A stretch of DNA of 64,000 bases from a phage: the NCBI GenBank assembly GCA_018175075.1, contig GCA_018175075.1_4100.1; one strand, given 5' to 3'. Below, piece after piece: positions 42,481 to 61,487 of the stretch. Every line of letters starts with the position of its first letter. The first letter of the stretch is position 1. The notes beneath the pieces were generated by a model. The model saw only the letters and a list, made by a program, of their open reading frames with translations. It made no database searches and had not been told where the DNA came from. The position numbers and the translations under genes were made by a program.

Positions 42481-42512
42481 AAAACTATTTTAAAAGTACA
42501 TGTAGAAAGTAC

Positions 42513-42571
42513 TTGCACCGTACTGATAAAAGCGTATAATGTTTTACATCGAGAGCGGGAACACTTCCCGC
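42513..42571 (+). promoter_or_regulatory. A-type promoter/stem-loop cassette
   Basis: TTGCAC/16/TATAAT + GCGGGAA-CAC-TTCCCGC. Confidence 0.55.
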
Positions 42572-42586
42572 TACACTTTAAAAGAG

Positions 42587-42958
42587 ATGAAAACGATGGC
42601 GACTCAAATCAATAAAATCATGCTTAACCTGGTAAACTTCCGCGATGAGATGAAAGGTCTTCCGGCTGAAACTGTAAAAATTCACATTGCAGCTTATCGG
42701 GAACTTATTGCAATGTTGCCGCTTAAGCGTGAACAATACGCCGCTACTTTGATGCTGGATTCAATGATCCATGTAATGATCTCAAATGATTTAACGATGG
42801 TTTATCAGTACATGGGAGAAAATTTCGCGGTGTGTAGTAAGCCAGTACCAGGGATGGCAACTACTGAGGAATTGCACGGTTTAAATTTAAAGCAAGATGC
42901 ATGGGATAATATGCCTCGTTTCCTGGTATGGGCTGACAGTGGCAAAATTTACAAATAA
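42587..42958 (+). CDS. hypothetical protein
   Basis: ATG 42587 after the stem-loop; track start 42539 is the ATG inside the -10 box. Confidence 0.55.
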   Translation: MKTMATQINKIMLNLVNFRDEMKGLPAETVKIHIAAYRELIAMLPLKREQYAATLMLDSMIHVMISNDLTMVYQYMGENFAVCSKPVPGMATTEELHGLNLKQDAWDNMPRFLVWADSGKIYK

Positions 42959-42972
42959 GTTTAATAAAGTAC

Positions 42973-43031
42973 TTGCAAACTATGTTTAATGGCGTATAAT
43001 GTTTTACATCAGGTGGGGAATAGTTCCCCAC
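42973..43031 (+). promoter_or_regulatory. A-type promoter/stem-loop cassette
   Basis: TTGCAA/16/TATAAT + GGGGAA-TAG-TTCCCC. Confidence 0.55.
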
Positions 43032-43051
43032 TATATAAGAGGATTAAAAAA

Positions 43052-43291
43052 ATGGCTAAATCAAAAATGTTCTTAGGTCACAAAAACAAAACTCATTGGA
43101 ATGTAAGCCTGTGGATTAATAACGATGAGGGATTGTATCGGTTGGCCCTGGATTTTATTAACGACAACACTAATCGCAATGATGCGGCCCGTCATATGAT
43201 GTTATTTTTAGAACAGACTGGACAAGATAAAACACCGGACGGATTCAAATATAGCACTACTGCGATCCGTGCGGCGATGGTTGGAATGTAA
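43052..43291 (+). CDS. hypothetical protein (paralog of 45092 gene)
   Basis: AAGAGGA RBS; shared ..GHKNKTHWNVSLWINN..TPDGFKYSTTAIRAAMVGM. Confidence 0.6.
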   Translation: MAKSKMFLGHKNKTHWNVSLWINNDEGLYRLALDFINDNTNRNDAARHMMLFLEQTGQDKTPDGFKYSTTAIRAAMVGM

Positions 43292-43381
43292 TAGAATAGA
43301 ATTTATTTAAAGTACTATCGCAAAAAATGATAGTACTTTATAATAGTGTTTTATTCATACACCAACGATAAGGGCAACAGC

Positions 43382-43645
43382 ATGAATATTAAGTATTTTG
43401 CGACGCGTGAACAAGCTCGGATCGCTGCACGCCAGGACGGGGCAACGTTTAAAGATATGGGCGTACAATCGGAACGTGGTAAACGTTGGGCCATTGTAAA
43501 GCGTAGTACCGCCAGATCATTACAGTACTGGTTAGCGGCCTTAAAAAGTCCCGATAGTGTATCGCGTCGAGTGGTAGAAATAAAGCTCGACCGAAAGGGC
43601 AACCGCGTGACCGTGTACCGTACTAAAAAGATTGCAGTACTATAA
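43382..43645 (+). CDS. hypothetical protein (paralog of 56658 gene)
   Basis: AAGGG RBS; shared KYFATREQARIAAR..DRKGNRVTVY. Confidence 0.55.
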   Translation: MNIKYFATREQARIAARQDGATFKDMGVQSERGKRWAIVKRSTARSLQYWLAALKSPDSVSRRVVEIKLDRKGNRVTVYRTKKIAVL

Positions 43646-43653
43646 AAAAGTAC

Positions 43654-43711
43654 TTGCAAACTCTGTTTAATGGCGTATAATGTTTTACATCGAGAGCGGG
43701 AACACTTCCCG
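43654..43711 (+). promoter_or_regulatory. A-type promoter/stem-loop cassette
   Basis: TTGCAA/16/TATAAT + GCGGGAACACTTCCCGC. Confidence 0.55.
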
Positions 43712-43733
43712 CCTATAACCTGGAGTAATAAAA

Positions 43734-43964
43734 ATGACTAATATGTATATGACTGAAGTTAAAACCGTAAAAGATACTACCACAAATAAAGTTACTTACT
43801 TACAGCGGATCTGTGGTGTATGGCAACGTATCAGCAAATCAAAGTACTATAAATTAACATCATATGCAAACCGTTCTGATTCATTCAGTACTGAAATAAA
43901 AGGTAATAAAGTACACCAATACGGCACTTATTATTATTACAGCCTGGACGCGATTGCAGTATAA
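43734..43964 (+). CDS. hypothetical protein
   Basis: 76 aa, GGAG RBS. Confidence 0.55.
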   Translation: MTNMYMTEVKTVKDTTTNKVTYLQRICGVWQRISKSKYYKLTSYANRSDSFSTEIKGNKVHQYGTYYYYSLDAIAV

Positions 43965-43994
43965 GCAGTTTACAAATCTTTACAATTGCCGGTA

Positions 43995-44023
43995 TTGACT
44001 TATTTTGTCAGTACTGGCATAAT
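43995..44023 (+). promoter_or_regulatory. sigma70-like promoter TTGACT/17/CATAAT with no ORF downstream
   Basis: faces minus promoter 44139-44167 across an inverted-repeat element. Confidence 0.4.
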
Positions 44024-44039
44024 GTATTCATTGGCAGAT

Positions 44040-44135
44040 AAGCCGTAGCCCATAGGGTGCGGGAGTGTATCTATAGAAAAATTAGTTTAGTATAGTTACA
44101 ATTGTGCACCCGGTGGGTTAGCTGTTGTCATGGGG
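44040..44135. repeat. GGGTGC inverted-repeat element
   Basis: CCCATAGGGTGC .. GCACCCGGTGGG arms about 50 nt apart; related copies at ~41950, 42110-42180, 46520, 51365, 53020, 55365, 58625, 60890. Confidence 0.5.
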
Positions 44136-44138
44136 TAT

Positions 44139-44167
44139 ATTATGCCAGTACTGGATAGTGCTGTCAA
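44139..44167 (-). promoter_or_regulatory. minus-strand promoter TTGACA/17/CATAAT
   Basis: read as reverse complement; convergent with 43995 promoter. Confidence 0.4.
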
Positions 44168-44211
44168 TACTTTTTTAATATTCAGTACTGAAAACTATTT
44201 TTAAAAAGTAC

Positions 44212-44357
44212 TTGCAAACTATGTTTAAAGGCGTATAATGTTTTACATCAGGACGGGGAACGAAATAAGTAACTTCCCGTTAAGTAGCCCAGGAGTAAGG
44301 CACACGAAAAACTCCCCTGATAAAATAGTTTGACAATTGTTTTTAAAAGCGTATAAT
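44212..44357 (+). promoter_or_regulatory. tandem promoters flanking a conserved leader (copy 1)
   Basis: TTGCAA 44212/TATAAT 44234; leader hairpin; second TTGACA 44330/TATAAT 44352; homologous block at 55428-55571. Confidence 0.5.
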
Positions 44358-44389
44358 ACTTACATCAACTACTGAATGAGGGTTACAAA

Positions 44390-45001
44390 ATGAAAACTAT
44401 CACTACTACTACTTTCGTTATGGATTTTTCTGAATTGAACGCAGAACAAAAAACGTCAGCTATCGAACTGGTTCGGGAACGTGAAAAAAACTCAAACGAC
44501 AATTATTTTTCTGAAAGTGAAATTGAATACTATAAAGAAACAGTACTACCGGAATATGGCATTAATGACGCTGAAATACAATTCAGTGGCTTTTGGTCCC
44601 AGGGTGACGGTGCATCAATCAGTACTGACCACGTTGACGCAGTGAAGTTTTTACGCAAGGTAAGAGCATTAACTAAGTATCGCTCAATCCGTCACCTGCT
44701 GAATGAAGATGATTTGGCGATGAGTGTAAAGCGTTCGCACTCCCACTACTCGCATGAGAATACTGTAAGCGGGTACATTGAATCGGCTTACACTGATTTA
44801 ACCGCAAAACAAGAAACGTTAGTTAATGAGCTTGAGGAACTACTCACTGAAACTATTCGTGAATTGTCCCGCAAGTTGTACCGTGATTTAGAGAATGCAT
44901 ATGAGGATCAATTCACCACTGAAAACATTACGGCACTGATTGAGGGTAACGAATATCAATTCAATGTTATTGATGGCGTAGTAGAATCAATCGAATATTA
45001 A
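44390..45001 (+). CDS. hypothetical acidic protein
   Basis: 203 aa, GAGGG RBS. Confidence 0.65.
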   Translation: MKTITTTTFVMDFSELNAEQKTSAIELVREREKNSNDNYFSESEIEYYKETVLPEYGINDAEIQFSGFWSQGDGASISTDHVDAVKFLRKVRALTKYRSIRHLLNEDDLAMSVKRSHSHYSHENTVSGYIESAYTDLTAKQETLVNELEELLTETIRELSRKLYRDLENAYEDQFTTENITALIEGNEYQFNVIDGVVESIEY

Positions 45002-45013
45002 TTTAAAAAGTAC

Positions 45014-45073
45014 TTGCAAACTAAGTTTAAAAGCGTATAATACTTTATATCGAGGCGGGGAATGGTTCCCCGC
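45014..45073 (+). promoter_or_regulatory. A-type promoter/stem-loop cassette
   Basis: TTGCAA/16/TATAAT + GCGGGGAA-TGG-TTCCCCGC. Confidence 0.55.
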
Positions 45074-45091
45074 TCAAACGAGGATTTAAAA

Positions 45092-45331
45092 ATGGCTAGT
45101 ACTAAAACTTACAACGGTCACAAAAACAAAACTCATTGGAATGTAAGCCTTTGGATTAATAACGGTGAGTCATTGTATCGGCTTGCTCAAAGTTGCATCG
45201 CACAAAGTAGAACTAAAGATATTGCTGCGGAATGTATGTACCGCAGATTAAAAGCCAACGGTACTACTACAACGCCGGACGGCTTTAAGTATAGCACTAC
45301 TGCGATCCGTGCTGCAATGGTTGGAATGTAA
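45092..45331 (+). CDS. hypothetical protein (paralog of 43052 gene)
   Basis: 79 aa, GAGGA RBS. Confidence 0.6.
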   Translation: MASTKTYNGHKNKTHWNVSLWINNGESLYRLAQSCIAQSRTKDIAAECMYRRLKANGTTTTPDGFKYSTTAIRAAMVGM

Positions 45332-45350
45332 TATTCAGTACTGAGATAAT

Positions 45351-45370
45351 GGCGGGGAATGGTTCCCGCC
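45351..45370 (+). promoter_or_regulatory. isolated cassette-type stem-loop
   Basis: GGCGGGGAA-TGG-TTCCCGCC with no clear -35. Confidence 0.35.
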
Positions 45371-45388
45371 TTTACTGAGGGTTATCTA

Positions 45389-45676
45389 ATGAGTAAAGTA
45401 ATAAAGTACAATGTGTTAAGTAAATCATTGTCTATCAGTGAATGCACCGATGGTTTTTGGATGTACGATGAAACGCGTGGCATGAATTTAGCTATGCGTG
45501 CAAAAACTGCTGAGGCGGCGTATATTCAAGCACTGGAATACTACCAGGAACGTTTAAAGGAAGTAGAAGAAGATTATAAAAGCCTCAAAGCGAAAGTAGA
45601 TCATTTCGTCGGTCAATTCGTGGAAGACAACGACGAGGACGGGCACTACTGCGACCGTTGCGGATCTTACAGTTAA
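45389..45676 (+). CDS. hypothetical protein
   Basis: ATG 45389 with GAGGG RBS; C-terminal CDRC. Confidence 0.5.
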   Translation: MSKVIKYNVLSKSLSISECTDGFWMYDETRGMNLAMRAKTAEAAYIQALEYYQERLKEVEEDYKSLKAKVDHFVGQFVEDNDEDGHYCDRCGSYS

Positions 45677-45693
45677 GTACTAAGGATTATATA

Positions 45694-45906
45694 ATGAGTG
45701 ATTTAATTGAACGTATCAAAGAGCTTGAAGAAAAAGAATTGCAGTTGATCGGGTTACGGAATAAAGTATTCCATGATTTAGGTGGCTTTATTAATGCCTG
45801 GGATAGTGGCGATCCTGATGCGTTACCTGCTAACCGCCAGGCGATGATCAATGATGTGCGTGGTGTCTTTGAGTATGTTTTAAAAGTACTAGACACTAAG
45901 CAATAA
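45694..45906 (+). CDS. hypothetical protein
   Basis: ATG 45694 with AAGGA RBS. Confidence 0.5.
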   Translation: MSDLIERIKELEEKELQLIGLRNKVFHDLGGFINAWDSGDPDALPANRQAMINDVRGVFEYVLKVLDTKQ

Positions 45907-45967
45907 AGGCGTATAATACTTTATATTGGTACTGACAAACATTATAAGCGATTCAGGAGCTTTAATC

Positions 45968-46153
45968 ATGACAACATTATCTGAGGTTATCCGCGTTCAA
46001 GCTGCAAAGGCTGGAATGACTGTTATCAATGTAGGGATCAAGATTGAGATCTCCCCTAACGAGTTGCAAGGGATTCCCGATCCTACTAGCTGGGATCGTG
46101 CTGGGCGAATGATGCGTAATGCTTCATTACTGGACGGTACAAAATTTAATTAA
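45968..46153 (+). CDS. hypothetical protein
   Basis: 61 aa; CAGGAG RBS. Confidence 0.45.
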   Translation: MTTLSEVIRVQAAKAGMTVINVGIKIEISPNELQGIPDPTSWDRAGRMMRNASLLDGTKFN

Positions 46154-46160
46154 AAAGTAC

Positions 46161-46219
46161 TTGCAATTAGTTTTTAGTACTGTATAATGGTTTACATCAA
46201 AGGGAGAAATGGTTCTCCC
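46161..46219 (+). promoter_or_regulatory. A-type promoter/stem-loop cassette
   Basis: TTGCAA/16/TATAAT + GGGAGAAATGGTTCTCCC. Confidence 0.55.
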
Positions 46220-46238
46220 TGGTAATGAGGAAAATAAA

Positions 46239-46460
46239 ATGGCTAATATCACTACTCTTTCCCAACTGGAAGCACTGGTTAAATCTATGCGGGAACATGC
46301 CGACAAAATCGGCGTACAAGATCCAGCCGTTTGCTTCTGCGACGAAATGAATGATGATACACTGGTAATAGCAGAAGTCCAGGACGTTTCTAACTATTCC
46401 TCGCGTTACACTGGCGGCGTAGCAAATAAAGGTGACTTCTGTTTATACCTTACAAAATAA
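46239..46460 (+). CDS. hypothetical protein
   Basis: 73 aa, GAGGA RBS. Confidence 0.55.
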   Translation: MANITTLSQLEALVKSMREHADKIGVQDPAVCFCDEMNDDTLVIAEVQDVSNYSSRYTGGVANKGDFCLYLTK

Positions 46461-46465
46461 CAACG

Positions 46466-46496
46466 CGGGGAGATAATAACTCCCCGTTACTTTTTC
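46466..46496. terminator. intrinsic terminator hairpin, T-rich on both sides
   Basis: CGGGGAGATAATAACTCCCCG then TTACTTTTTC. Confidence 0.55.
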
Positions 46497-46566
46497 AGTA
46501 CTGAATCATTTAATAGACGGATCTCGGCACCCGGTGGGTTAGTGACTGTTTCGTCTTGATGTAGTA

Positions 46567-46595
46567 ATTATGCCAGTACTGGATGCACTTGTCAA
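46567..46595 (-). promoter_or_regulatory. minus-strand promoter TTGACA/17/CATAAT
   Basis: read as reverse complement; would give a ~90-nt antisense RNA ending at hairpin 46466-46486. Confidence 0.35.
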
Positions 46596-46628
46596 CAACT
46601 ATTTTTCAAATACTTTTTATTAAAATAC

Positions 46629-46682
46629 TTGCAATTAGTTTTTAAACGCGTATAATGTTTTGCATAGGGGGAGCGGTTCCCC
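46629..46682 (+). promoter_or_regulatory. A-type promoter/stem-loop cassette
   Basis: TTGCAA/16/TATAAT + GGGGGAGCGGTTCCCC. Confidence 0.5.
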
Positions 46683-46703
46683 TGGTAACTAAGGAATAAT
46701 AAA

Positions 46704-46940
46704 ATGCTTGAACAAATCAAATCAACGTCTGCGAATGTAACGGGAACGGTAGCACACTTTACTAGTGATGAATCGCGGGGCGTTCCCTATTGTGCTGTAC
46801 ATGTAAACACTGAGGGTAACTACTGGTTTACGGTTTACGGATCATATTCATTTGGACGGCCTGGACATCAAAAAATTCTGGATAAAGTACAGCCAACGGG
46901 TAAAAATATCACTGCTGAAATGTTTTATAAAAAATCATAA
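46704..46940 (+). CDS. hypothetical protein
   Basis: 78 aa, AAGGA RBS. Confidence 0.55.
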   Translation: MLEQIKSTSANVTGTVAHFTSDESRGVPYCAVHVNTEGNYWFTVYGSYSFGRPGHQKILDKVQPTGKNITAEMFYKKS

Positions 46941-46945
46941 AGTAC

Positions 46946-47005
46946 TTGATAATAGTTTTTAGTACTGTATAATATTTTACATCGCAAGGGGGGAGCGGTT
47001 CCCCC
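46946..47005 (+). promoter_or_regulatory. A-type promoter/stem-loop cassette
   Basis: TTGATA/16/TATAAT + GGGGGGAGCGGTTCCCCC. Confidence 0.5.
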
Positions 47006-47025
47006 TGGTAACTAAGGATAATCAA

Positions 47026-47325
47026 ATGAAAATTGCAATCATCGCCCTGGCTTTATCTGTTTCCTCTTTCGCTGTTAATGCGTCGTTAGATGTAAGTAGT
47101 GAAAAATTCATTCAGTGCACTGTAGCGATGACCAATGAAAGTACTGGCGAGATTGTTTTAAAGGATTTAGAGATCCAGCCAGAAGCATTTAAAAACGGGC
47201 CGTTCCATGAAGAAGACGAAAAAGGTAGCACGACAATTTATTACGATGCAAGTACTAAACGCGGTTCGGTCACTGTTATGGATACTGAGAAAGTAACGCA
47301 TTCCGGCGTTATTAATTGCCGTTGA
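47026..47325 (+). CDS. secreted protein (signal peptide)
   Basis: MKIAIIALALSVSSFAVNASLD; AAGGA RBS. Confidence 0.6.
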   Translation: MKIAIIALALSVSSFAVNASLDVSSEKFIQCTVAMTNESTGEIVLKDLEIQPEAFKNGPFHEEDEKGSTTIYYDASTKRGSVTVMDTEKVTHSGVINCR

Positions 47326-47346
47326 TAGATACTACGGGGTAACATC

Positions 47347-47577
47347 ATGACTAAGCGAATTGTTTTACTTAACGAAAGCAGTACTACACAACTACTTAAC
47401 GCCGTGCATTATGATATTGAAACGAGCGTTAATCTTATCAGTACTGTAGTACTGTTGGACACTGGAAAGGTCGCCAATGATAAAGCGATTGCAGGTATAT
47501 TAACGGATCTTGAGCCTGGTAGCAGTGCACCAATAACGTTAAATGGTAAAGTGTTTAATATTTTACTCACTGATTAA
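47347..47577 (+). CDS. hypothetical protein
   Basis: 76 aa, GGGG RBS. Confidence 0.5.
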   Translation: MTKRIVLLNESSTTQLLNAVHYDIETSVNLISTVVLLDTGKVANDKAIAGILTDLEPGSSAPITLNGKVFNILLTD

Positions 47578-47583
47578 GTACAT

Positions 47584-56215: not shown

Positions 56216-56238
56216 CTAACTAAAAGAGAGAAATAAAA

Positions 56239-56562: not shown

Positions 56563-56584
56563 TAGAATCCATTTAAAGTACTAT

Positions 56585-56613
56585 TTGACATTGCCCAGAT
56601 AGTACTTTATAAT
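56585..56613 (+). promoter_or_regulatory. sigma70-like promoter TTGACA/17/TATAAT
   Basis: hexamers read directly. Confidence 0.5.
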
Positions 56614-56657
56614 AGACTCTAACTTGTAGTACTAACTTAACTAATAGGATGTATACC

Positions 56658-57053
56658 ATGATTACTAAATTCTACGCTACCCGTGAAGCTGCCCGTATTG
56701 TTGCACGCGAGGAAGGAGCAGCATTTAAAGACATGGGCAAAGATGCACCGAAAGGCCAACGCTGGGCCGTACAGTTCAAAGAGATCTCTGATATTGTGAA
56801 TTCACCTGAGCCAGTACTAACAGCAGCAGAACTAAAACGAGCGGATATGCTGGCGGCAATACTTGACGCACAAGATGAGTTTATCGCTGGTTCTGATATC
56901 AAAGTACAGGTAAACCACACCGCATGGACTCACGCGGATCACCTGGCAAACCTTAAGCGTCCAAGTGAACTGATTCGCAACCAGAAAGAGATCCGACATG
57001 ATCGTAAGGGTAATCGTGTAACAGTATACAGTAAACGCCGCCAGGTTATCTAA
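56658..57053 (+). CDS. hypothetical protein (paralog of 43382 gene)
   Basis: ATG 56658 with AGGA RBS (56649 also possible). Confidence 0.55.
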   Translation: MITKFYATREAARIVAREEGAAFKDMGKDAPKGQRWAVQFKEISDIVNSPEPVLTAAELKRADMLAAILDAQDEFIAGSDIKVQVNHTAWTHADHLANLKRPSELIRNQKEIRHDRKGNRVTVYSKRRQVI

Positions 57054-57076
57054 TAACTTGCAGTACTAACAACACG

Positions 57077-57100
57077 GCGGGATCAGTTCCCGCCTTTTTT
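57077..57100 (+). terminator. intrinsic terminator
   Basis: GGCGGGA-TCAG-TTCCCGCC + T6. Confidence 0.7.
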
Positions 57101-57114
57101 ATAGGACAAACAAA

Positions 57115-57369
57115 ATGATTAAGGTTCAACTATATAAAGATAACATCTTACGGGTACACTATAAAGCACCTCAGAGAATCATCACAAAGGCCGTACAGCT
57201 TGCTAATGAGTTTATTAATGGTAACCTATTACCTAGGAAGTTAAGCAACGGGAAACTGCGTGTAATCGACGTGGACACTAACAACAGGATAGTAATCGAG
57301 AACACAGGAAAGATAAACCTTTATGAGCATCAACAATACAATAAGAAAATAAAACTAATATCACGTTGA
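57115..57369 (+). CDS. hypothetical protein
   Basis: 84 aa, AGGA RBS. Confidence 0.55.
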   Translation: MIKVQLYKDNILRVHYKAPQRIITKAVQLANEFINGNLLPRKLSNGKLRVIDVDTNNRIVIENTGKINLYEHQQYNKKIKLISR

Positions 57370-57394
57370 CAGTACTCAAATGTTTTAGTACTAT
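57366..57394 (+). promoter_or_regulatory. sigma70-like promoter TTGACA/17/TACTAT (duplicated at 57643)
   Basis: ~55-bp block repeated before two adjacent genes. Confidence 0.45.
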
Positions 57395-57422
57395 GTACAC
57401 ATACCAACACGGGAGAAACAAA

Positions 57423-57641
57423 ATGAAATTATCTAAAATCGAAAAGAAAACTATTGATGAAGCAGTTAAGCACGGTTATACCTTTCGTAATGATTCACAT
57501 TTTACCAATTTTCAACAAGGGTATCGTACTATTAAAAAACTAATTGACAAAGGTTTATTAGTTGAAGTCAATAACGGTAACGGTATCGAGTATCAACCAA
57601 CACAAGACGCATTTTATTTTAAGAAATATAATATTATCTAA
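57423..57641 (+). CDS. hypothetical protein
   Basis: 72 aa from ATG 57423 with GGGAGA RBS. Confidence 0.55.
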   Translation: MKLSKIEKKTIDEAVKHGYTFRNDSHFTNFQQGYRTIKKLIDKGLLVEVNNGNGIEYQPTQDAFYFKKYNII

Positions 57642-57642
57642 T

Positions 57643-57670
57643 TGACAGTACTCAAATGTTTTAGTACTAT
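57643..57670 (+). promoter_or_regulatory. sigma70-like promoter TTGACA/16/TACTAT
   Basis: duplicate of 57366 block. Confidence 0.45.
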
Positions 57671-57699
57671 ATGTACATACCAACACGGGGAGAAACAAA

Positions 57700-57942
57700 A
57701 TGATTACTTTAGAAAAACGTATCAAAGAAACTACATCGCTGGTGGAACTGTTAACAGTACTGAAATGTAAAACAACACCATTCAGCACGCCGGACTTTAT
57801 TAATATGGTTGATGTTAATGGTCGCTATCGTATCACGGTCGTGAATGGTGCGGCGAAAGTATTCAGTACTAAAAACACTAAGGAAGTGATCCACGCCGTT
57901 AATGTTAAAAAAGTAGTTGCCATTGATAGTAAAGTACTGTAA
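57700..57942 (+). CDS. hypothetical protein
   Basis: 80 aa, GGGGAGA RBS. Confidence 0.55.
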   Translation: MITLEKRIKETTSLVELLTVLKCKTTPFSTPDFINMVDVNGRYRITVVNGAAKVFSTKNTKEVIHAVNVKKVVAIDSKVL

Positions 57943-57973
57943 GATAGTTTCATTAACTCAAGGAGTAAATGCA

Positions 57974-58558
57974 ATGCGTAATTATACTAAATTCATCCGT
58001 ACACTGTCAGAAATGGAAACCAACAAAGAGATCCTTTCAGCTTGTCGGTTAGCTGGCCTGGAGATCATCGGGGCGGGATCTTCCCGTATAGTTTTCGCTT
58101 TAAATGATCGGTTAGTGATTAAGGTCGCGAATTGTGATGCGGGTGTAGAACAAAATGAAACTGAATGTAAGGTATGGAATTTTTTAGACTATGACCGCCC
58201 TCAGTTGAAACAGTACTTTGCAAAGGTGCATATGCATTTATGCGATCCTGATAATATGTTTATCGTTATGGATCGGTTGAGTACTGCAAGCAAAGGCAGT
58301 GTGAAGCACGTTAACGCGTGCAATGAATTAAAGTACAATATTAAACGTAATGCAATCGAACGCCAGCACCGCTTTGCTGATGCACTACAACACGTTGATG
58401 ATACATTATCAACACTAACGATAAGAGATATCAGAAAACAGAATATCGGCCAGGATCGTAATGGACTTATTAAAGTACTTGATTACGGTTTAACCCGCAA
58501 TATCTGGAATCAGTACTATAAAAAGCGTGATGTAGCAGCAAGTAAGGTAACACGATAA
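57974..58558 (+). CDS. Ser/Thr protein-kinase-like protein
   Basis: IGAGSSRIV Gly loop, VIKVA lysine, IRDIRKQNIG catalytic loop, KVLDYG DFG-like; AAGGAG RBS. Confidence 0.6.
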   Translation: MRNYTKFIRTLSEMETNKEILSACRLAGLEIIGAGSSRIVFALNDRLVIKVANCDAGVEQNETECKVWNFLDYDRPQLKQYFAKVHMHLCDPDNMFIVMDRLSTASKGSVKHVNACNELKYNIKRNAIERQHRFADALQHVDDTLSTLTIRDIRKQNIGQDRNGLIKVLDYGLTRNIWNQYYKKRDVAASKVTR

Positions 58559-58570
58559 AAAAGATTAAAA

Positions 58571-58606
58571 AAGGGATTGACTCCGGTCAGTCCCTTTGCT
58601 ATTATA
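58571..58606 (+). terminator. intrinsic terminator with embedded promoter hexamers
   Basis: GGGATTGAC-TCCG-GTCAGTCCC + TTTG, then TATTAT. Confidence 0.6.
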
Positions 58607-58698
58607 TATTCATTGAGAGATAACTCACTGACCCATAGGGTGCATAAGTGTATCTATTATATAAGTATTCAGTACTGGAAACTATTTTTAAAAAGTAC

Positions 58699-58760
58699 TT
58701 GCATTGTACTTAGAATCAAGTATAATGTTTTATATCGAGAGGGGGAAATGGTTCTCCCTG
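58699..58760 (+). promoter_or_regulatory. A-type promoter/stem-loop cassette
   Basis: TTGCAT/16/TATAAT + GGGGGAAATGGTTCTCCC. Confidence 0.55.
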
Positions 58761-58780
58761 GTACATTAAGGAATAAAATC

Positions 58781-59002
58781 ATGACTACAATGACTTGCAT
58801 TCACGCTTCAAACCTGCTTAATGATGCGGCCTTTAATGTTGATTCAGAATATCAATGTTATCGGGATGAAAATAAAAAAGTTTTTGTAGTTGATAATAAT
58901 GGTTTCCATATTGAATTACAATCCGGCTTCACTGGTGTTGATGGTAAATCAGTATGGGGCGTACAGGATGATAAAGGTACATATCATTTTAAACGTAATT
59001 AA
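58781..59002 (+). CDS. hypothetical protein
   Basis: 73 aa from ATG 58781 with AAGGAA RBS; long track ORF upstream is cassette read-through. Confidence 0.55.
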   Translation: MTTMTCIHASNLLNDAAFNVDSEYQCYRDENKKVFVVDNNGFHIELQSGFTGVDGKSVWGVQDDKGTYHFKRN

Positions 59003-59005
59003 GTA

Positions 59006-59064
59006 TTGACAAAGTATATCAGTACTGTATAATAGTTTACATCAAGGGGAGAATAGTTCTCCCC
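59006..59064 (+). promoter_or_regulatory. C-type promoter/stem-loop cassette
   Basis: TTGACA/16/TATAAT + GGGGAGAATAGTTCTCCCC. Confidence 0.55.
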
Positions 59065-59088
59065 ACACCAATAAAAGGAAACAAAATT

Positions 59089-59361
59089 ATGTCCAGCTAC
59101 TCCGCTACTATGATCATTAAAGATATGAACGGTAATCCTACTTCTGCTGGTGGATCATTTGGAAACATTAATTTAGATGGTCGGTTATCCATGCAATCAG
59201 CCATTGATGCAGCTAAAGAAGTTTTTAAGAATGAATGTACTGTAAGCAAGCTGGATTATATGGGATTCGCTATCGAGAAAACTAATCGTTTTGTGAACTA
59301 CAAAAAGCCTATGATGATTGATACTAACCTGAAAGCTAACGAAGTGGAATACTTATTATGA
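59089..59361 (+). CDS. hypothetical protein
   Basis: 90 aa, AAAGGAA RBS. Confidence 0.6.
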   Translation: MSSYSATMIIKDMNGNPTSAGGSFGNINLDGRLSMQSAIDAAKEVFKNECTVSKLDYMGFAIEKTNRFVNYKKPMMIDTNLKANEVEYLL

Positions 59362-59549
59362 CAGTAGAAGAAGTTAAAAAAGTACTGGCAGTACTACGCT
59401 ATCATAATCATTGTAAGGTGAAGAATGATCCTGATTATCTTGATTCATCCCTGGAGGAAGACACCTTAAACGCGATAAGCTATATGCAAACATTAGCAAA
59501 GCGTATGACCGAAAAGAATAGGCCGGACTATATAGGAAATAAAATTTAA
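59358..59549 (+). CDS. hypothetical protein
   Basis: 63 aa, ATGA-coupled. Confidence 0.5.
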   Translation: MTVEEVKKVLAVLRYHNHCKVKNDPDYLDSSLEEDTLNAISYMQTLAKRMTEKNRPDYIGNKI

Positions 59550-59556
59550 AAAGTAC

Positions 59557-59618
59557 TTGCATTGTAGTTAGATTAACGTATAATGTTTTATATCGAGAGG
59601 GGGAAATGGTTTCCCCTC
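59557..59618 (+). promoter_or_regulatory. A-type promoter/stem-loop cassette
   Basis: TTGCAT/16/TATAAT + GAGGGGGAAA-TGG-TTTCCCCTC. Confidence 0.55.
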
Positions 59619-59636
59619 AAGTCCAGGAGATACACC

Positions 59637-59900
59637 ATGAACACTATCGAAATCACTATCAATGCACACGTATACGACAACGTAGTACTGCAAACTACTA
59701 TGACCGCTAATGATACCAGTACTTTGCGGAATACTGTTATTAGTGCCGTATGTGCTGCAATCGGTGATGTCGCCCTGGAAAATGCAAAACACGTAAACGA
59801 TGGTTTCACTATGTGCAAACGTGATAACGCAAAACATATCATCGTGGAAGGTTACGGCGGTGTAGAATTTAATGTTTATATGAAAAAAGTACTTGCATAA
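59637..59900 (+). CDS. hypothetical protein
   Basis: 87 aa from ATG 59637 with CAGGAG RBS. Confidence 0.55.
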   Translation: MNTIEITINAHVYDNVVLQTTMTANDTSTLRNTVISAVCAAIGDVALENAKHVNDGFTMCKRDNAKHIIVEGYGGVEFNVYMKKVLA

Positions 59901-59949
59901 TAACTAAAACAAAGTATAATGTTTTGCATAGGGGGAGATATCCTCCCCC
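59893..59949 (+). promoter_or_regulatory. A-type promoter/stem-loop cassette
   Basis: TTGCAT/16/TATAAT + GGGGGAGATATCCTCCCCC; -35 overlaps upstream stop. Confidence 0.55.
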
Positions 59950-59967
59950 ACTAAAAGGAGTAATAAA

Positions 59968-60192
59968 ATGGCTAACTTTGATGAACTGATGCGGGAAGTA
60001 GCTACCCTGGCAGAAGAGAAGAAATCATTCGATTCTATCTATAACACCGCTCACCGTGATTCAGTACTGGCATGTACTCAGGATCAAAAAGATGAACTAA
60101 TCGCCACCTATCATGAAGCATGGAAGTACTACCGCCAATGGGAGAAAGAAGAAAGCGAGTCTACCATCAACGGCATCAATAATCTAATCTAA
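59968..60192 (+). CDS. hypothetical protein
   Basis: 74 aa, AAGGAG RBS. Confidence 0.6.
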   Translation: MANFDELMREVATLAEEKKSFDSIYNTAHRDSVLACTQDQKDELIATYHEAWKYYRQWEKEESESTINGINNLI

Positions 60193-60211
60193 AAGTTTTA
60201 TTTCAGTACTA

Positions 60212-60240
60212 TTGACATAGCTTGATAGTACTGATGTAAT
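60212..60240 (+). promoter_or_regulatory. B-type promoter cassette
   Basis: TTGACA/17/TGTAAT. Confidence 0.5.
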
Positions 60241-60268
60241 AACTTTACTAACTACAAGGGGAAACATC

Positions 60269-60526
60269 ATGGAACAATTCACACAATATCGGGTAAATCC
60301 TCAAGCTATGGCCTACGTAGAAGACCATAAAACGTTACCAGTACTGCAACCAGTTAAAGGCCATATCTATCGTGGCCTTGCCTGGGATACGGCCCAGGAT
60401 GGATATAAAACCGTCGCAGTGGGGATGTATTGCGGGAATGGTGAATGGTTTGATCCTAACAATCCGATTGCACTTGACAGTACTGAAAAAATGAAATGGG
60501 CCGACTACATCGAAGATATTTCATAA
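60269..60526 (+). CDS. hypothetical protein
   Basis: 85 aa, AAGGGGAA RBS. Confidence 0.6.
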   Translation: MEQFTQYRVNPQAMAYVEDHKTLPVLQPVKGHIYRGLAWDTAQDGYKTVAVGMYCGNGEWFDPNNPIALDSTEKMKWADYIEDIS

Positions 60527-60533
60527 AAACTAT

Positions 60534-60594
60534 TTGACAGTACTAACCAGTAATGTATAATGTTTTACATAGAGCGGGGGAATAGTTCTCCCGC
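60534..60594 (+). promoter_or_regulatory. C-type promoter/stem-loop cassette
   Basis: TTGACA/16/TATAAT + GCGGGGGAATAGTTCTCCCGC. Confidence 0.55.
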
Positions 60595-60616
60595 CAATAG
60601 TTTGGAGTAAAACATT

Positions 60617-60817
60617 ATGTCTATCGCTATCGCCCTGGTTGAAGTACTGAAAGAAGCTAAAGCCAACCTTATCGATGTACAGATTAAGGAATTGCAAAAC
60701 GGCTTAATCGGCTGTACTTGTACCGCTGGCGGTGCGGCAGACTATCGAGAACACGAATCACTCGAATCACTGGTTCGGTATCTTACCATGATCGTTGATG
60801 ATTGGAGAATCATCTAA
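60617..60817 (+). CDS. hypothetical protein
   Basis: 66 aa, GGAG RBS. Confidence 0.55.
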   Translation: MSIAIALVEVLKEAKANLIDVQIKELQNGLIGCTCTAGGAADYREHESLESLVRYLTMIVDDWRII

Positions 60818-60835
60818 CAAAAAAAGAATAAAAAA

Positions 60836-60870
60836 AGGGATTGACTCCGGTCAGTCCCTTTGCTATTATA
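60836..60870 (+). terminator. intrinsic terminator with embedded promoter hexamers
   Basis: GGGATTGAC-TCCG-GTCAGTCCC + TTTG, then TATTAT. Confidence 0.6.
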
Positions 60871-60983
60871 TACGCATAGACAAAAACTAGCCCACAGGGT
60901 GCATAAGTGTATCCAAAATATATAGTTAATAACGGTGAGTAACTATCTGCTGGTGGAGTGAAAACTATTAATAAAAAAAAGTA

Positions 60984-61045
60984 TTGACAAAGTATATCAG
61001 TACTGCAATAATGTATCTCGTAGGGCGGCAATGGTGCGACGGCCC
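60984..61045 (+). promoter_or_regulatory. C-type promoter variant
   Basis: TTGACA/16/CAATAAT + imperfect GGGCGGC..GACGGCCC hairpin. Confidence 0.4.
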
Positions 61046-61065
61046 ACAAAGTTAGGAGATTCAAA

Positions 61066-61398
61066 ATGACTACTTCAATCGCTATCGTTAAAGCTTTCAT
61101 CCGTACTAATGTTTCCTCTGTATTCATCGACGGCCTCGACCGTAACGTAGAATACTCAATCATTATCGCACAAACGGCAAACGGTTCTCGGTACATCCTG
61201 AATGATAGTGAAGCAAATCACTACTACTTCACTAAAGCCACTGGCTTTAAACGCATCGATGCTGATGTAGTATACGCTAAGATGAATAAGCTGGTAGACA
61301 AGATTAACGCGAAAGGTACTATCGATTTACAGTACTGGACCGAAACCGATCCAGAATATGGATCTCACCGCTACCTGAATCCAGGTATTAAAATGTAA
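61066..61398 (+). CDS. hypothetical protein
   Basis: 110 aa, AGGAG RBS. Confidence 0.6.
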   Translation: MTTSIAIVKAFIRTNVSSVFIDGLDRNVEYSIIIAQTANGSRYILNDSEANHYYFTKATGFKRIDADVVYAKMNKLVDKINAKGTIDLQYWTETDPEYGSHRYLNPGIKM

Positions 61399-61405
61399 AA
61401 AGTAC

Positions 61406-61468
61406 TTGCATAGTACTTAGAATCAAGTATAATGTTTTACATAGAGAGGGGGAAATGGTTCTCCCTCC
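61406..61468 (+). promoter_or_regulatory. A-type promoter/stem-loop cassette
   Basis: TTGCAT/16/TATAAT + GGGGGAAATGGTTCTCCC. Confidence 0.55.
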
Positions 61469-61487
61469 TACTTTAAGGAGTATTATC

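Follow-up and report, generated by a model that had tools for sequence, protein, structure and literature searches.

Reiterated promoter cassettes, most with a small 5′ hairpin, within the terminal repeat of an Asteriusvirus jumbo coliphage

In a 64,000-nucleotide stretch of phage DNA (the window), we found about 45 strong, near-identical promoter units of the host type within a terminal repeat, most of them with a small hairpin at the predicted start of the message. As a whole, this array is best explained, with somewhat better than even confidence, as a set of early sigma-70 cassettes that carry a 5′-UTR hairpin and serve as portable homology for gene exchange.

The window belongs to an Asteriusvirus jumbo coliphage of the PBECO4/121Q/fEgEco12 group, whose host is E. 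coli. The entire array falls within a direct terminal repeat, the limits of which are alignment points for the ends of related genomes: position 40866 for position 1 of both fEgEco12 and vB_Ec-M-J, and position 62319 for the final base of fEgEco12. The termini of these two phages were determined with PhageTerm, and those of fEgEco12 additionally by restriction digests (PMC13070987).

40866-62319 (+): direct terminal repeat, 21,454 bp, present as a single collapsed copy in the assembly; contains the whole cassette array

The array holds 54 small genes (median 83 aa for the 53 automatically called ORFs), and is best explained as the early-gene region of the phage, coincident with the 21.4-kb repeat. 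In the distant relative PA5oct, many terminal-repeat genes are highly transcribed early, and the host polymerase is relied upon (PMC7318152). By this analogy, and with timing predicted from promoter consensus, the array promoters would probably fire early in vivo.

The first-pass annotation had described reiterated promoter cassettes of three types in front of small genes. An independent −35/−10 scan agrees, the promoters being of the sigma-70 type, and recovered each of the 32 cassettes then given as a predicted promoter, namely 20 of type A, 7 of type C and 5 of type B; eleven sites match the promoter consensus at 12/12 positions. With at most 3 mismatches allowed, the core motif TATAATGTTTTACATC has 33 matches in the window, a total that none of the shuffles attained, versus 3.2 expected; 26 of the 33 are + strand matches located between 42.5 and 61.5 kb. 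The type A cassettes, named here and below by their −10 boxes, are as follows.

42501-42572 (+): A-tract, −35 TTGCAC, 16-bp spacer, −10 TATAAT 42535, hairpin 42554-42572; gene 42596-42958
42961-43032 (+): −10 42995, hairpin 43012-43032; gene 43052-43291
43642-43712 (+): −10 43676, hairpin 43696-43712; gene 43734-43964
44200-44357 (+): −10 44234, structured leader 44246-44328 (~85 nt), second promoter −10 44352; family D13; gene 44390-45001
45002-45074 (+): −10 45036, hairpin 45054-45074; gene 45092-45331, paralog of 43052
46149-46220 (+): −10 46183, hairpin 46201-46220; gene 46239-46460
46617-46684 (+): −10 46651, hairpin 46665-46684, kept just downstream of a terminator; gene 46704-46940
46934-47006 (+): −10 46968, hairpin 46987-47006; genes 47026-47325, 47347-47577
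48483-48556 (+): −10 48517, hairpin 48535-48556 with two G.U pairs; gene 48578-48805
48802-48874 (+): −10 48836, hairpin 48854-48874; gene 48892-49035
50608-50679 (+): −10 50642, hairpin 50660-50679; gene 50699-50845
50837-50908 (+): −10 50871, hairpin 50889-50908; gene 50927-51079, then small ORFs
51424-51495 (+): −10 51458, hairpin 51477-51495; gene 51515-51856
53962-54031 (+): −10 TATAGT 53997, hairpin 54013-54031; genes 54049-54237, 54265-54588
54880-54949 (+): −10 54914, hairpin 54933-54949; genes 54971-55144, 55141-55290
55416-55571 (+): −10 55450, structured leader 55462-55542 (~85 nt), second promoter −10 55566; family D13; gene 55605-55880
58687-58759 (+): −10 58721, hairpin 58740-58759; gene 58781-59002
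59545-59618 (+): −10 59579, hairpin 59597-59618; gene 59637-59900
59881-59949 (+): −10 59915, hairpin 59931-59949; gene 59968-60192
61394-61467 (+): −10 61428, hairpin 61446-61467; gene 61488-61889; the array's final cassette

All of these sites stand, although two of them, 44234 and 55450, have a structured leader of about 85 nt followed by a second promoter instead of the simple hairpin that had been attributed to type A. Type C cassettes carry a hairpin, and type B cassettes consist of a 77-nt block in five copies, with pairwise identity of up to 99%. Type B cassettes lack the hairpin, as does the Yersinia relative.

51858-51929 (+): type C, TTGACA, 16-bp spacer, TATAAT, −10 51892, hairpin 51910-51929; gene 51950-52162
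54583-54654 (+): type C, −10 54617, hairpin 54635-54654; gene 54672-54884
55872-55945 (+): type C, −10 55906, hairpin 55926-55945; gene 55969-56151
56143-56215 (+): type C, −10 56177, hairpin 56197-56215; gene 56239-56562, paralog of 49417
58994-59064 (+): type C, −10 59028, hairpin 59046-59064; genes 59089-59361, 59358-59549
60522-60594 (+): type C, −10 60556, hairpin 60574-60594; gene 60617-60817
60972-61045 (+): type C-like, TTGACA, 17-bp spacer, AATAAT, −10 61007, irregular hairpin 61023-61045; gene 61066-61398
49025-49101 (+): type B, TTGACA, 17-bp spacer, TGgCATAAT, −10 49078, no hairpin, unstructured 25-nt UTR; family D7; gene 49115-49327
49317-49393 (+): type B, 99% identical to 49025-49101; family D7; gene 49417-49740
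52152-52228 (+): type B, −10 52205; family D7; gene 52246-52425
52414-52490 (+): type B-like, TTGACA, 16-bp spacer, TATAAT, −10 52466, no hairpin; family D7; gene 52516-52659
60182-60258 (+): type B, degenerate −10; family D7; gene 60269-60526

The three-type division holds as far as it goes, but there is a fourth type, here called D, that had not been listed. Beyond the 32 cassettes, the scan yielded about 13 additional strong promoters on the + strand (−10 boxes at 44018, 44352, 45912, 47682, 51337, 52990, 53579, 55332, 55566, 56608, 57389/57665, 58600 and 60864) and three on the − strand. Type D cassettes, small non-coding units, other promoters and terminators are given below.

51294-51400 (+): type D, hairpin over −35 (AAAGTGGTTGACTTCGGTCAGCCATTTT), then T-run, −10 TATTAT 51337, small non-coding unit; family D9
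55289-55400 (+): type D, hairpin and terminator over −35, −10 55332, then small non-coding unit; family D9
58557-58670 (+): type D, hairpin and terminator over −35, −10 58600, then small non-coding unit
60821-60930 (+): type D, hairpin and terminator over −35, −10 60864, then small non-coding unit
43995-44085 (+): promoter TTGACT, 17-bp spacer, TGgCATAAT, −10 44018; small non-coding unit, core GCCCATAGGGTGC...TGTATCTAT
44075-44172 (−): small non-coding unit copy, own promoter −10 44144; convergent with the 44018 unit
46510-46600 (−): small non-coding unit copy, promoter −10 46572
52967-53055 (+): promoter −10 52990, small non-coding unit copy
45351-45370 (+): decayed cassette, same-family hairpin, degenerate promoter TTGGAA, 18-bp spacer, GATAAT; gene 45389-45676
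45890-45917 (+): promoter without hairpin, TAGACA, 16-bp spacer, TATAAT; gene 45968-46153
46465-46487 (+): terminator-like hairpin and T-run, loop with −10-like GATAAT; PeSL-like anatomy
47648-47810 (+): promoter TTGACA, 16-bp spacer, TAGAAT, −10 47682, ~117-nt leader; gene 47811-48293
47584-47600 and 48315-48335: terminators flanking the 47682 promoter and gene 47811-48293
53557-53584 (+): promoter without hairpin, 12/12 consensus; gene 53614-53970 (GNAT acetyltransferase)
56585-56613 (+): promoter without hairpin, 12/12 consensus; gene 56658-57053, paralog of 43382, then terminator 57076-57094
57366-57394 (+): promoter TTGACA, 17-bp spacer, TACTAT, in a 58-nt block, 88% identical pair; family D17; gene 57423-57641
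57642-57670 (+): second copy of the 57366 promoter block; family D17; gene 57700-57942

In a repeat search, the cassettes fall into families of 24 × 57 nt, 14 × 90 nt and 9 × 97 nt. All cassettes are co-oriented, with 162/162 covariance-model matches on the + strand across the window and 8 further loci. Intergenic gaps in the array are typically 76-95 bp, and nearly each of them amounts to one portable expression cassette: upstream stop codon, A-tract, −35 box, 16-17 bp spacer, −10 box and a conserved start region (..TTTACATC), followed by a hairpin in 24-27 cassettes, an unstructured A-rich spacer with the ribosome-binding site, and the ATG. Twenty-four cassettes share a fixed layout (A-tract, −35 box, 16-bp spacer, TATAAT, hairpin, A-rich spacer, ATG), in which a stem of 7-9 bp starts 8-14 nt past the −10 box and the A-rich spacer, containing the ribosome-binding site, measures 17-24 nt. 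Conservation thus extends past the promoter hexamers, to the AAAAAGTAC A-tract, the GTTTTACATC stretch 3′ of the −10 box, the hairpin and the ribosome-binding-site spacer, with a mean column identity of 66% across ~105 nt.

Several observations argue that the hairpin is under selection as RNA of the sense strand. Structure of −9 kcal/mol or below is found within +1..+36 in 28 of 43 promoters, versus 4.3% of control windows from the same region. When the hairpins are aligned, 92% of cells pair, compensatory changes occur in 7 of 8 pairs, and the covariation score is 0.352 versus 0.198 for shuffled alignments (0/500 shuffles reach 0.352; slid controls ≤0.144). The events behind these counts are not independent of one another: the cassettes are paralogous copies, and they were aligned to fit the covariance model. 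G.U outnumbers U.G in the stems by 62 to 2, and the GGGGA/TCCCC hairpin family from a structure-blind scan contains ~30 G.T mismatches and no A.C. Dinucleotide-shuffle z-scores of single UTRs are modest (−1.2 to −4.4). The stem arms are purine on the 5′ side and pyrimidine on the 3′ side, and this strict polarity exceeds what a purely structural role explains.

Host sigma-70 RNA polymerase would read each cassette, and, with the exact start predicted from promoter consensus, the hairpin would lie within the cassette's own 5′ UTR, beginning at about +2 to +8, most often about +6. Our best guess is a cis-acting 5′-UTR element that would provide every small cargo gene, unrelated as these genes are, with a uniform, well-behaved leader. 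Such an element may protect the free 5′ end or reduce its length, and may prevent base pairing between the leader and the ribosome-binding site, which is single-stranded in all folds (11/11 hairpin-bearing UTRs). The lack of a U-run in all A- and C-type hairpins argues against a role as terminator, and a need for the hairpin only in read-through is contradicted by its presence in cassettes directly downstream of terminators (46651, 48517, 51458, 58721 and 61007). E. coli mRNAs are stabilised by 5′-terminal stem-loops, according to work listed in PMC3997798 (Emory 1992; Bouvet & Belasco 1992). A start at the conserved A, 8 nt past the −10 box, would leave 1-7 nt (median 5) unpaired before the hairpin. 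Classical 5′-terminal stabilisers reportedly tolerate fewer, going by the Belasco work. A simple stem-loop orthogonal to the scanning path of RNase E is readily bypassed by that enzyme (PMC9943677). The unpaired nucleotides and this bypass both count against a 5′-stabiliser role.

The nearest known system is that of the PeSLs of T4-type phages (PMC2839356, PMC4122927), as had been proposed. The phage itself is not T4-type: it is an Asteriusvirus jumbo phage, and the array belongs to its direct terminal repeat. The hairpins, too, are differently placed. In the hyperplastic region of RB49, a direct scan located G-rich hairpins at −18..0 or −10..+11 from the first base of the −10 box, that is, inside the promoter and upstream of the transcription start. 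In contrast, the A/C hairpin of the Asteriusvirus cassettes begins 8-14 nt past the −10 box, in the cassette's own predicted transcript, and lacks a terminator T-run. Among the cassette types, only type D has PeSL anatomy, with a hairpin over the −35 box and then a T-run (51337, 55332, 58600 and 60864).

Since about 45 copies with 60-100% identity lie in one orientation, the cassettes constitute portable homology; copies 91-99% identical separate unrelated cargo genes (families D6, D7). Recombination between them could delete, insert, replace or reorder the genes that they flank. Comparing the window with five relatives (26 events, 52 unique breakpoints), we found that cassettes bound gene gain, loss and replacement: 42 of the 52 breakpoints (81%) fall within −45..+75 of a −10 box versus 29% expected (p ~2e-14), 18 of the 26 events have cassettes at both ends, and 12 of 26 share junction homology of 15-103 bp. 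Selection for indels of whole genes would by itself place some of the breakpoints in cassettes, as cassette windows cover 75% of intergenic bases. As examples of exchange at cassettes, the gene between the type B copies 49025-49101 and 49317-49393 is absent in fEgEco12 and WPEC5, the gene between the twin blocks 57366-57394 and 57642-57670 is missing in SP27 and PBECO4, and fEgEco12 has an extra gene inserted at cassette 58994-59064, which is duplicated there. Three of the four proposed paralog pairs hold, namely 43052/45092 (63% identity), 43382/56658 (35%) and 49417/56239 (37%). The fourth, 49115/52246, gives no BLASTP alignment, and its members share only the upstream cassette and first codons (MAII).

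Similar cassettes occur in other lineages. In the related Klebsiella phage Muenster, an Alcyoneusvirus with a terminal repeat of 20,030 bp, the hairpin stems differ in sequence and their position is mostly the same. In the unrelated Vequintavirinae phage A7_1, the same cassettes recur, and homologous cargo with them, at 72-91% nucleotide identity and in non-collinear order. Judged from these sequences, this is best explained if cassette-plus-gene units passed between the jumbo-phage lineage of the window and Vequintavirinae coliphages that are unrelated to it. The cassettes would thus mark sites at which small early genes were gained, lost and swapped between phages.

A megablast search with positions 42400-50400 matched 203 phage records. 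The best matches are Asteriusvirus coliphages with genomes of 347-386 kb (WPEC5, EC.P1, SP27, PBECO4, 121Q, fEgEco12 and vB_Ec-M-J), at 88-97% identity and with patchy coverage of 50-93%, so the first-pass annotation's comparison with T4-type coliphages does not hold as regards the phage itself, which belongs with the Asteriusvirus jumbo phages. In vB_Ec-M-J, the matching part falls within an annotated direct terminal repeat of 21,525 bp, and the repeat of fEgEco12 (20,993 bp) was identified with PhageTerm and confirmed by restriction digest (PMC13070987). The first base of both fEgEco12 and vB_Ec-M-J (AGTAGGCAGAGG...) aligns to position 40866 of the window, and the last base of fEgEco12 to position 62319. 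The promoter array at 42508-61470 therefore lies wholly within a direct terminal repeat (40866-62319), which is collapsed to a single copy in the present assembly. The repeat contains 54 small genes, and the median product length is 83 aa among the 53 automatically called ORFs, in agreement with the small genes initially described behind the cassettes. The gaps between these genes cluster at 76-95 bp, which corresponds to one cassette apiece. For the majority of the scanned proteins no function is known; the exceptions are a DksA/TraR zinc finger, a GNAT acetyltransferase and, weakly, a kinase-like match.

Two further features lie near the ends of the repeat. About 0.8 kb inside its left end, within a gene-free stretch of 1.6 kb, is a tandem array of GGAYGGCT-like units with 8-nt periodicity (41672-41771; TRF periods of 16, 24, 32 and 48; repeat family D11), which could represent iterons bound by proteins that serve in packaging, in replication or as an injection stop. 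Just beyond the right end, at 62387-64000, begins a run of packed, overlapping small paralogous genes (~65-75 aa) without intervening cassettes, an organisation that contrasts sharply with that of the repeat. A search of the whole window detected neither tRNA nor tmRNA genes.

The cassettes, which we name by the position of their -10 box, are more numerous than first listed. The 16-mer TATAATGTTTTACATC occurs 33 times with up to three mismatches, where 3.2 occurrences are expected, and a scan for -35/-10 pairs recovered all 32 cassettes of the first-pass annotation together with ~13 additional promoters on the + strand and 3 on the - strand. This brings the total to ~45 + strand promoters, and at eleven sites in 20 kb the promoter scan matched 12 of 12 consensus positions. 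Cassette repeat families reach up to 24 copies. The first-pass annotation had allowed that the blocks might prove to be conserved no further than the promoter hexamers; an alignment of 24 cassettes instead reveals ~105 conserved nt, consisting of an A-tract (AAAAAGTAC), the -35 box, spacer, -10 box, GTTTTACATC, the hairpin and a ribosome-binding-site spacer. Four designs can be distinguished.

Cassette designs in the terminal repeat
Type A: TTGCAA-like -35 box, 16-bp spacer, TATAAT, hairpin
Type C: TTGACA, 16-bp spacer, TATAAT, hairpin as in type A
Type B: TTGACA, 17-bp spacer, extended -10 box TGgCATAAT, no hairpin, short and unstructured UTR; blocks up to 99% identical
Type D: -35 box embedded in a hairpin (AAAGGGATTGACTCCGGTCAGTCCCTTT), then a T-run and TATTAT; called a terminator by the terminator scan

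Type D was absent from the original list, and the cargo downstream of it is a small non-coding unit (described below), not a gene. Outside the repeat, we also observed promoters resembling the promoter-early stem-loops (PeSLs) of T4-type phages, in which the -35 box is embedded in a hairpin (GGGTTGACTtcGGTCAgCCCTTTT) that is followed by a -10 box, ahead of small + strand genes.

PeSL-like promoters outside the repeat
-10 boxes at 6076, 9316, 10076, 13009 and 17924: + strand

A second observation concerns the genes, named here by their starts. Thirteen of the 54 repeat genes begin with ATGGC(T/G), encoding Met-Ala, and several unrelated ones begin with MAII.

Genes of the repeat with Met-Ala starts
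42596, 43052, 45092, 46239, 47811, 48578, 49115, 49417, 51950, 52246, 55969, 56239 and 59968

The common module thus seems to extend into the first codons of the cargo genes. The paralogy initially proposed stands for three gene pairs (43052/45092, 43382/56658 and 49417/56239), but 49115 and 52246 share no protein similarity, and these common starts probably account for their having been paired.

The geometry of the hairpin-bearing designs is nearly constant. Across 24 type A and C cassettes, the hairpin begins 8-14 nt (median 12) past the -10 box and ends 17-24 nt (median 19) ahead of the ATG, and the stretch between hairpin and ATG is A-rich and contains the ribosome-binding site. The stems are of 7-9 bp and of the form GGGGA(G)AA...TT(C)TCCCC, with predicted energies of -10 to -16 kcal/mol, and they enclose varied loops of 3-5 nt (TAG, CAC, ATGG, ATGA, ACGG, GCGG and ATATC). 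Structures of -9 kcal/mol or lower occur in the interval +1 to +36 of 28 of 43 promoters, as against 4.3% of control windows from the same region. When hairpin-bearing UTRs were folded, the hairpin formed and the ribosome-binding site remained unpaired in 11 of 11 cases. The interpretation that we prefer, by inference, is that the hairpin acts in cis on the mRNA of its own cassette, where it would provide a constant, well-behaved leader with some protection of the 5′ end and an open ribosome-binding site.

The leader hairpin of T7 gene 10 (GGGAGACCACAACGGTTTCCC) is grouped with 5′-terminal stabilising stem-loops, and stem sequences in the array resemble it, for example AGGGGAAACGGTTTCCCCT at 51477. 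Stem-loops of this kind in the 5′ UTRs of ompA and papA stabilise the mRNA (references listed in PMC3997798). What the cassettes share with such stabilisers is that a short and stable hairpin lies close to the 5′ end and is followed by an A/U-rich leader without structure and by a strong ribosome-binding site. However, if transcription starts at the conserved A located 8 nt after the -10 box, 1-7 nt (median 5) are predicted to be unpaired ahead of the hairpin, more than in the classical stabilisers, and this counts against a role of exactly that type, with the proviso that the start position is itself predicted. RNase E has been found to bypass simple, orthogonal stem-loops with ease (PMC9943677), and an argument from the hairpin as an obstacle to scanning therefore counts against the stabiliser idea and not for it. 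The strict polarity of a purine-rich 5′ arm and a pyrimidine-rich 3′ arm also counts against a classical stabiliser, as a purely structural role does not explain it, and this polarity thus keeps alive the alternative of a trans-acting factor.

The alternative closest to the first-pass annotation is that the cassettes are PeSLs in the strict sense. PeSLs are known from RB49/phi1, T4/PST and KVP40/nt-1 (Arbiol et al. 2010, PMC2839356; Comeau et al. 2014, PMC4122927), and their stem-loop is described as a terminator lying between the promoter boxes, over a box, upstream of the -35 box or just before the start, so that it is transcribed only by read-through from upstream; in RB49, the hairpins were shown to terminate transcription (PMC2839356, PMC4122927). 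Applied to the present array, each cassette would be a composite terminator-promoter whose hairpin mainly stops or attenuates read-through from the preceding cassette, or stabilises the upstream mRNA as a 3′-end barrier, and its place in its own transcript would be merely incidental. The G-run/C-run composition is indeed that of the RB49 stem-loops (PMC2839356, PMC4122927), two hairpins of the same family do carry T-runs and form terminator-like sites (46465 and 57076), and four type D units have true PeSL anatomy, with a hairpin over the -35 box and a T-run. Moreover, there are only ~9 terminator-like sites for the 54 genes, so most transcripts must enter the next cassette.

Several results speak against this alternative. 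A T-run follows none of the 24 type A and C hairpins, whose tails are A-rich, which leads us to reject an intrinsic terminator; correspondingly, none of the 22 sites found by a terminator scan of 42400-62350 is a + strand type A or C cassette hairpin. We also scanned the hyperplastic region of RB49, in which PeSLs were defined, and found its G-rich hairpins at -18 to 0 or -10 to +11 from the first base of the -10 box, that is, in or over the promoter, with leaders devoid of hairpins. In contrast to this variable placement, the hairpins of the array are fixed downstream of the -10 box. The type A and C cassettes thus lack one defining feature of PeSLs because their stem-loop is positioned differently, and a stem-loop upstream of the start is found only in the four type D units and at 46465. 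Furthermore, cassettes located immediately downstream of a strong terminator or of a type D unit (46651, 48517, 51458, 58721 and 61007) have kept their hairpins, which would be unexpected if stopping read-through were their only job, and a hairpin located after the promoter cannot shield that promoter from occlusion by read-through polymerase. Overall, we consider the strict PeSL explanation unlikely. The original likening to PeSLs is therefore apt for mobile early-promoter cassettes of that general kind, but not for the anatomy of hairpins that lie 8-14 nt after the -10 box without a T-run.

In Klebsiella phage Muenster (Alcyoneusvirus), whose terminal repeat of 20,030 bp was predicted by PhageTerm, the same array of promoters is found (AAGTAC-TTGACA...CAGTACTG-TATAAT). 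The majority of the Muenster hairpins occupy the equivalent position, with stems that are unrelated in sequence but again have a purine-rich 5′ arm.

Hairpin stems of phage Muenster
GGGGATAC..GTATCCCC
GGAGATTCCAG..CTGGAATCTCC
GGGAATGAA..TTCATTCCC

In Yersinia phage fHe-Yen9-04 (Eneladusvirus), on the other hand, the promoters and type D units are present and the 5′-UTR hairpin is mostly missing. The hairpin is therefore a conserved yet dispensable part of the design.

The hexamer AGTACT, a palindrome, is a separate peculiarity of these sequences. It occurs 292 times in the window (1-64000), where 21.8 copies are expected and none of 100 shuffles exceeded 32, and is spread through coding as well as non-coding DNA. 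In addition, copies adjoin the promoter boxes (AAGTAC|TTGCAA and AGTACTG|TATAAT), and several of the Muenster hairpins have the palindrome at their apex.

A trans-acting factor would be required if the hairpin were an RNA operator, recognised by a phage or host RNA-binding factor (which could be an N/boxB-type antiterminator, could repress translation or could be an endoribonuclease for early shut-off) that switches the whole early set together. A single hairpin type with strict polarity, conserved apical A-U pairs (GAA-loop-UUC) and a fixed place in ~25 transcripts would fit such an operator, as would the presence of GGAG in the stems and the stems beginning GGGGA, GGAGA and GGGAA by which Muenster keeps the polarity despite differing sequences. 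However, the free variation of the loop in sequence and length argues against loop-specific recognition, and the features of lambdoid nut sites, a conserved, purine-rich boxB pentaloop with an adjacent boxA, are not found, given the variable loops of 3-5 nt and the fact that no boxA-like element was noticed when the spacers were read by eye. No candidate binding protein was apparent, and the cargo genes are mostly without known function. We therefore regard an RNA operator as doubtful.

It could also be that the hairpin has no function of its own, the cassettes being young duplicates spread by recombination, with the hairpin hitch-hiking alongside the promoter. Many copies are 85-100% identical, so their apparent conservation is in part recent common descent or gene conversion. 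With a covariance model built from 12 cassettes, we searched the window and eight related loci. All 162 hits are on the + strand, and those in the window are confined to the terminal repeat, save one weak hit at 15733. The alignment obtained with the model replaced RNAalifold on a plain MAFFT alignment, which misaligned hairpins of unequal loop length. Among the 96 distinct sequences of this alignment, pairing is seen in 92% of cells, and 7 of the 8 pairs have undergone compensatory changes. The covariation score is 0.352, compared with 0.198 for shuffled alignments (0 of 500 reach 0.352) and at most 0.144 with slid partners, with the caveats that paralogous copies are being compared and that their alignment was itself fitted to the model. 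Pairing is also kept in 50 of 50 distinct hairpin sequences. These patterns, and the conservation of position and polarity in another genus with unrelated stems, make a lack of function improbable.

The mismatches tolerated in the stems bear on which nucleic acid is folded. The 96-sequence alignment contains 62 G.U pairs in which the G is on the 5′ arm, versus 2 U.G pairs, and when all promoter leaders were scanned without regard to structure, G.T was the commonest mismatch (30, versus 1 A.C and 11 C.A), with the listed A.C and C.A cases coming from leaders that lack the GGGGA/TCCCC hairpin. Such an asymmetry is meaningful only for a folded single strand of + sense, and it is therefore very unlikely that the palindrome works as duplex DNA, namely as the operator of a dimeric repressor that shuts off the early promoters from about +6 to +26: although GGGGAA-N3-4-TTCCCC is an inverted repeat with half-site centres about one helical turn apart, placed where a repressor would block promoter escape, stem mismatches are essentially never A.C, stem substitutions are compensatory, the spacing varies with loops of 3 to 5 nt, and the Muenster stem sequences are entirely different.

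Some other candidates were discarded. Stems of 7-9 bp are too short for an RNase III site; an upstream ORF that uses as its start the ATG present in many of the loops (ATGG and ATGA) would be inconsistent between cassettes in frame and stop codon; and alternative pairing of the 3′ arm with the ribosome-binding site amounts to 4 weak pairs at most. A search of Rfam yielded no family match, the three sub-threshold hits in 40000-63000 being at chance level (E up to 1) and none of them on a cassette.

To find where genes have been gained or lost, we chained blastn alignments of the repeat against fEgEco12, WPEC5, SP27, PBECO4 and 121Q. These contain 33 gene-sized indel or replacement events, of which 26 are unique. 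Breakpoints fall within -45 to +75 of a -10 box in 42 of 52 cases, while such windows make up 29% of the region (binomial p ~2e-14). Part of this enrichment is to be expected in any case under selection for indels of whole genes, given that cassette windows cover 75% of the intergenic bases. Both ends are in cassettes in 18 of the 26 events, and in 12 the flanks overlap by 15-103 bp of shared cassette sequence, which is the residue expected from recombination between direct repeats. For example, the gene at 49115-49327, missing in fEgEco12 and WPEC5, lies between two type B blocks that are 99% identical. Exchange appears to occur by homologous recombination within the 60-100-bp cassettes, and the cassette-bounded gain and loss of genes that had been anticipated is borne out.

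The exchange also reaches beyond the genus. The cassette alone matches RaK2-like phages of Klebsiella, Salmonella, Erwinia, Serratia and Yersinia, as well as three Vequintavirinae-type coliphages of ~145 kb. Phage A7_1 (Vequintavirinae) has two type A cassettes with hairpins identical to the window family, two type B cassettes, and a third, A-like cassette with a stem of its own (10402). They sit among homologs of seven segments of the terminal repeat, at 72-91% nucleotide identity and in changed order. We therefore conclude that units of cassette plus gene have moved between unrelated phage lineages.

The terminal repeat also contains multiple copies of a small non-coding unit, each behind its own predicted strong promoter, which is conserved across three phage genera.

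Copies of the small non-coding unit (coordinates in the window are approximate)
44031-44085, 51350-51400, 53003-53055, 55345-55400, 58613-58670 and 60877-60930: + strand
46510-46559, 44075-44131 and 42150-42202: - strand
Phage Muenster: 2353, 8927, 14036, 17193 and 18753
Phage fHe-Yen9-04: 4511, 5424, 9779 and 12139

The unit consists of a short variable hairpin followed by a conserved CTARCCC-AYA-GGGTGC core and ..TGTATCTAT. There are 12 different helix sequences among 14 copies of the hairpin, with A/G-rich loops of 6-7 nt. RNAalifold recovered just a 3-bp core helix, and a covarying P2 helix was listed by our script. The unit has no Rfam match and is not a tRNA. It is a candidate for a new small-RNA family of jumbo-phage terminal repeats.

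A further structured transcript of ~85 nt (CATCAGGACGGGGAAC...CTCCCCTGAT) is predicted between a type A promoter and a second promoter, and could be either a leader or a separate small RNA.

Copies of the ~85-nt element, and a similar leader
44246-44328 and 55462-55542: 88% identical (repeat family D13)
5228-5314 of phage A7_1: 89-91% identical
47694-47810: similar long leader

Among known systems, PeSLs are the closest. Like the cassettes described here, they are reiterated ~100-bp units that combine an upstream stop codon within AT-rich sequence with a sigma-70 promoter close to the consensus, a stem-loop made of a G-run and a C-run, a ribosome-binding site and the start codon; they are located in a plastic region ahead of small genes whose function is unknown, and they bound indels and replacements among close relatives. 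A further criterion for PeSLs is the presence of excised circular DNAs of cassette plus gene (mini-circles) during infection. However, the present cassettes occur in an Asteriusvirus jumbo phage and not in a T4-type phage (Straboviridae), they fill a direct terminal repeat whereas PeSLs are located in internal hyperplastic regions, and 24-27 of them have the hairpin past the predicted transcription start, in their own 5′ UTR, at a fixed distance and without a U-run.

Other phages also carry genes in long terminal repeats. In T5, the pre-early genes are located there. The terminal repeat of the distant relative PA5oct (39 kb) has 105 genes, many highly transcribed early, and two abundant non-coding RNAs map to it in a phage that relies on the host polymerase (PMC7318152). 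Such repeats resemble ours in being long and direct and in having many small genes of unknown function with host-type promoters, plausibly expressed first. Unlike here, descriptions of PA5oct, T5 and CBB mention neither a reiterated cassette of promoter plus 5′-UTR hairpin nor cassette-bounded shuffling, and for CBB only 18 RpoD-like promoters were reported genome-wide, 3 of them in the repeat (PMC5259590). Arbiol et al. (PMC2839356) drew an analogy between PeSLs and integrons. Integron cassettes are likewise small single-gene modules, mostly promoter-dependent, bounded by a foldable repeated recombination sequence, arranged in long co-oriented arrays and exchanged between replicons, but the present system has no integrase or attC-type site-specific recombination, and each cassette has its own promoter. 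We found no prior description of the cassettes or hairpin in Asteriusvirus, RaK2-like or rV5-like phages in the literature covered, which was incomplete and thus no proof of novelty.

Taken jointly, these results could reflect an integrase-free gene-cassette system in the terminal repeats of Asteriusvirus and Alcyoneusvirus, with a shared RNA handle and a multi-copy small RNA, a reading that we put forward only tentatively. If true, the unit of exchange would be a module of promoter, 5′-UTR hairpin and ribosome-binding site plus one small gene, and genes would be shuffled within the repeat and traded with unrelated phage families of the same host, for example Vequintavirinae. The hairpin would not be a terminator but a handle that co-regulates or protects the whole early gene set, and the small RNA (core CUARCCC-AYA-GGGUGC), conserved across three genera, would be a previously undescribed one.

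Many Asteriusvirus records begin elsewhere than at the physical genome end, and recognition of the array as a terminal repeat helps to put their annotation and orientation right. The cassettes, which are predicted to be strong, are ready-made compact expression modules for E. coli. With ~25 hairpin-bearing and ~15 hairpin-less cassettes in one genome, the phage also offers a natural experiment on the role of a 5′-UTR hairpin. Cassette-mediated modular shuffling, so far described only in T4-type phages, would then also apply to jumbo-phage terminal repeats and to exchange among unrelated families, and would offer a specific mechanism by which small early genes, whose functions are likely in host takeover or anti-defence, are turned over quickly.
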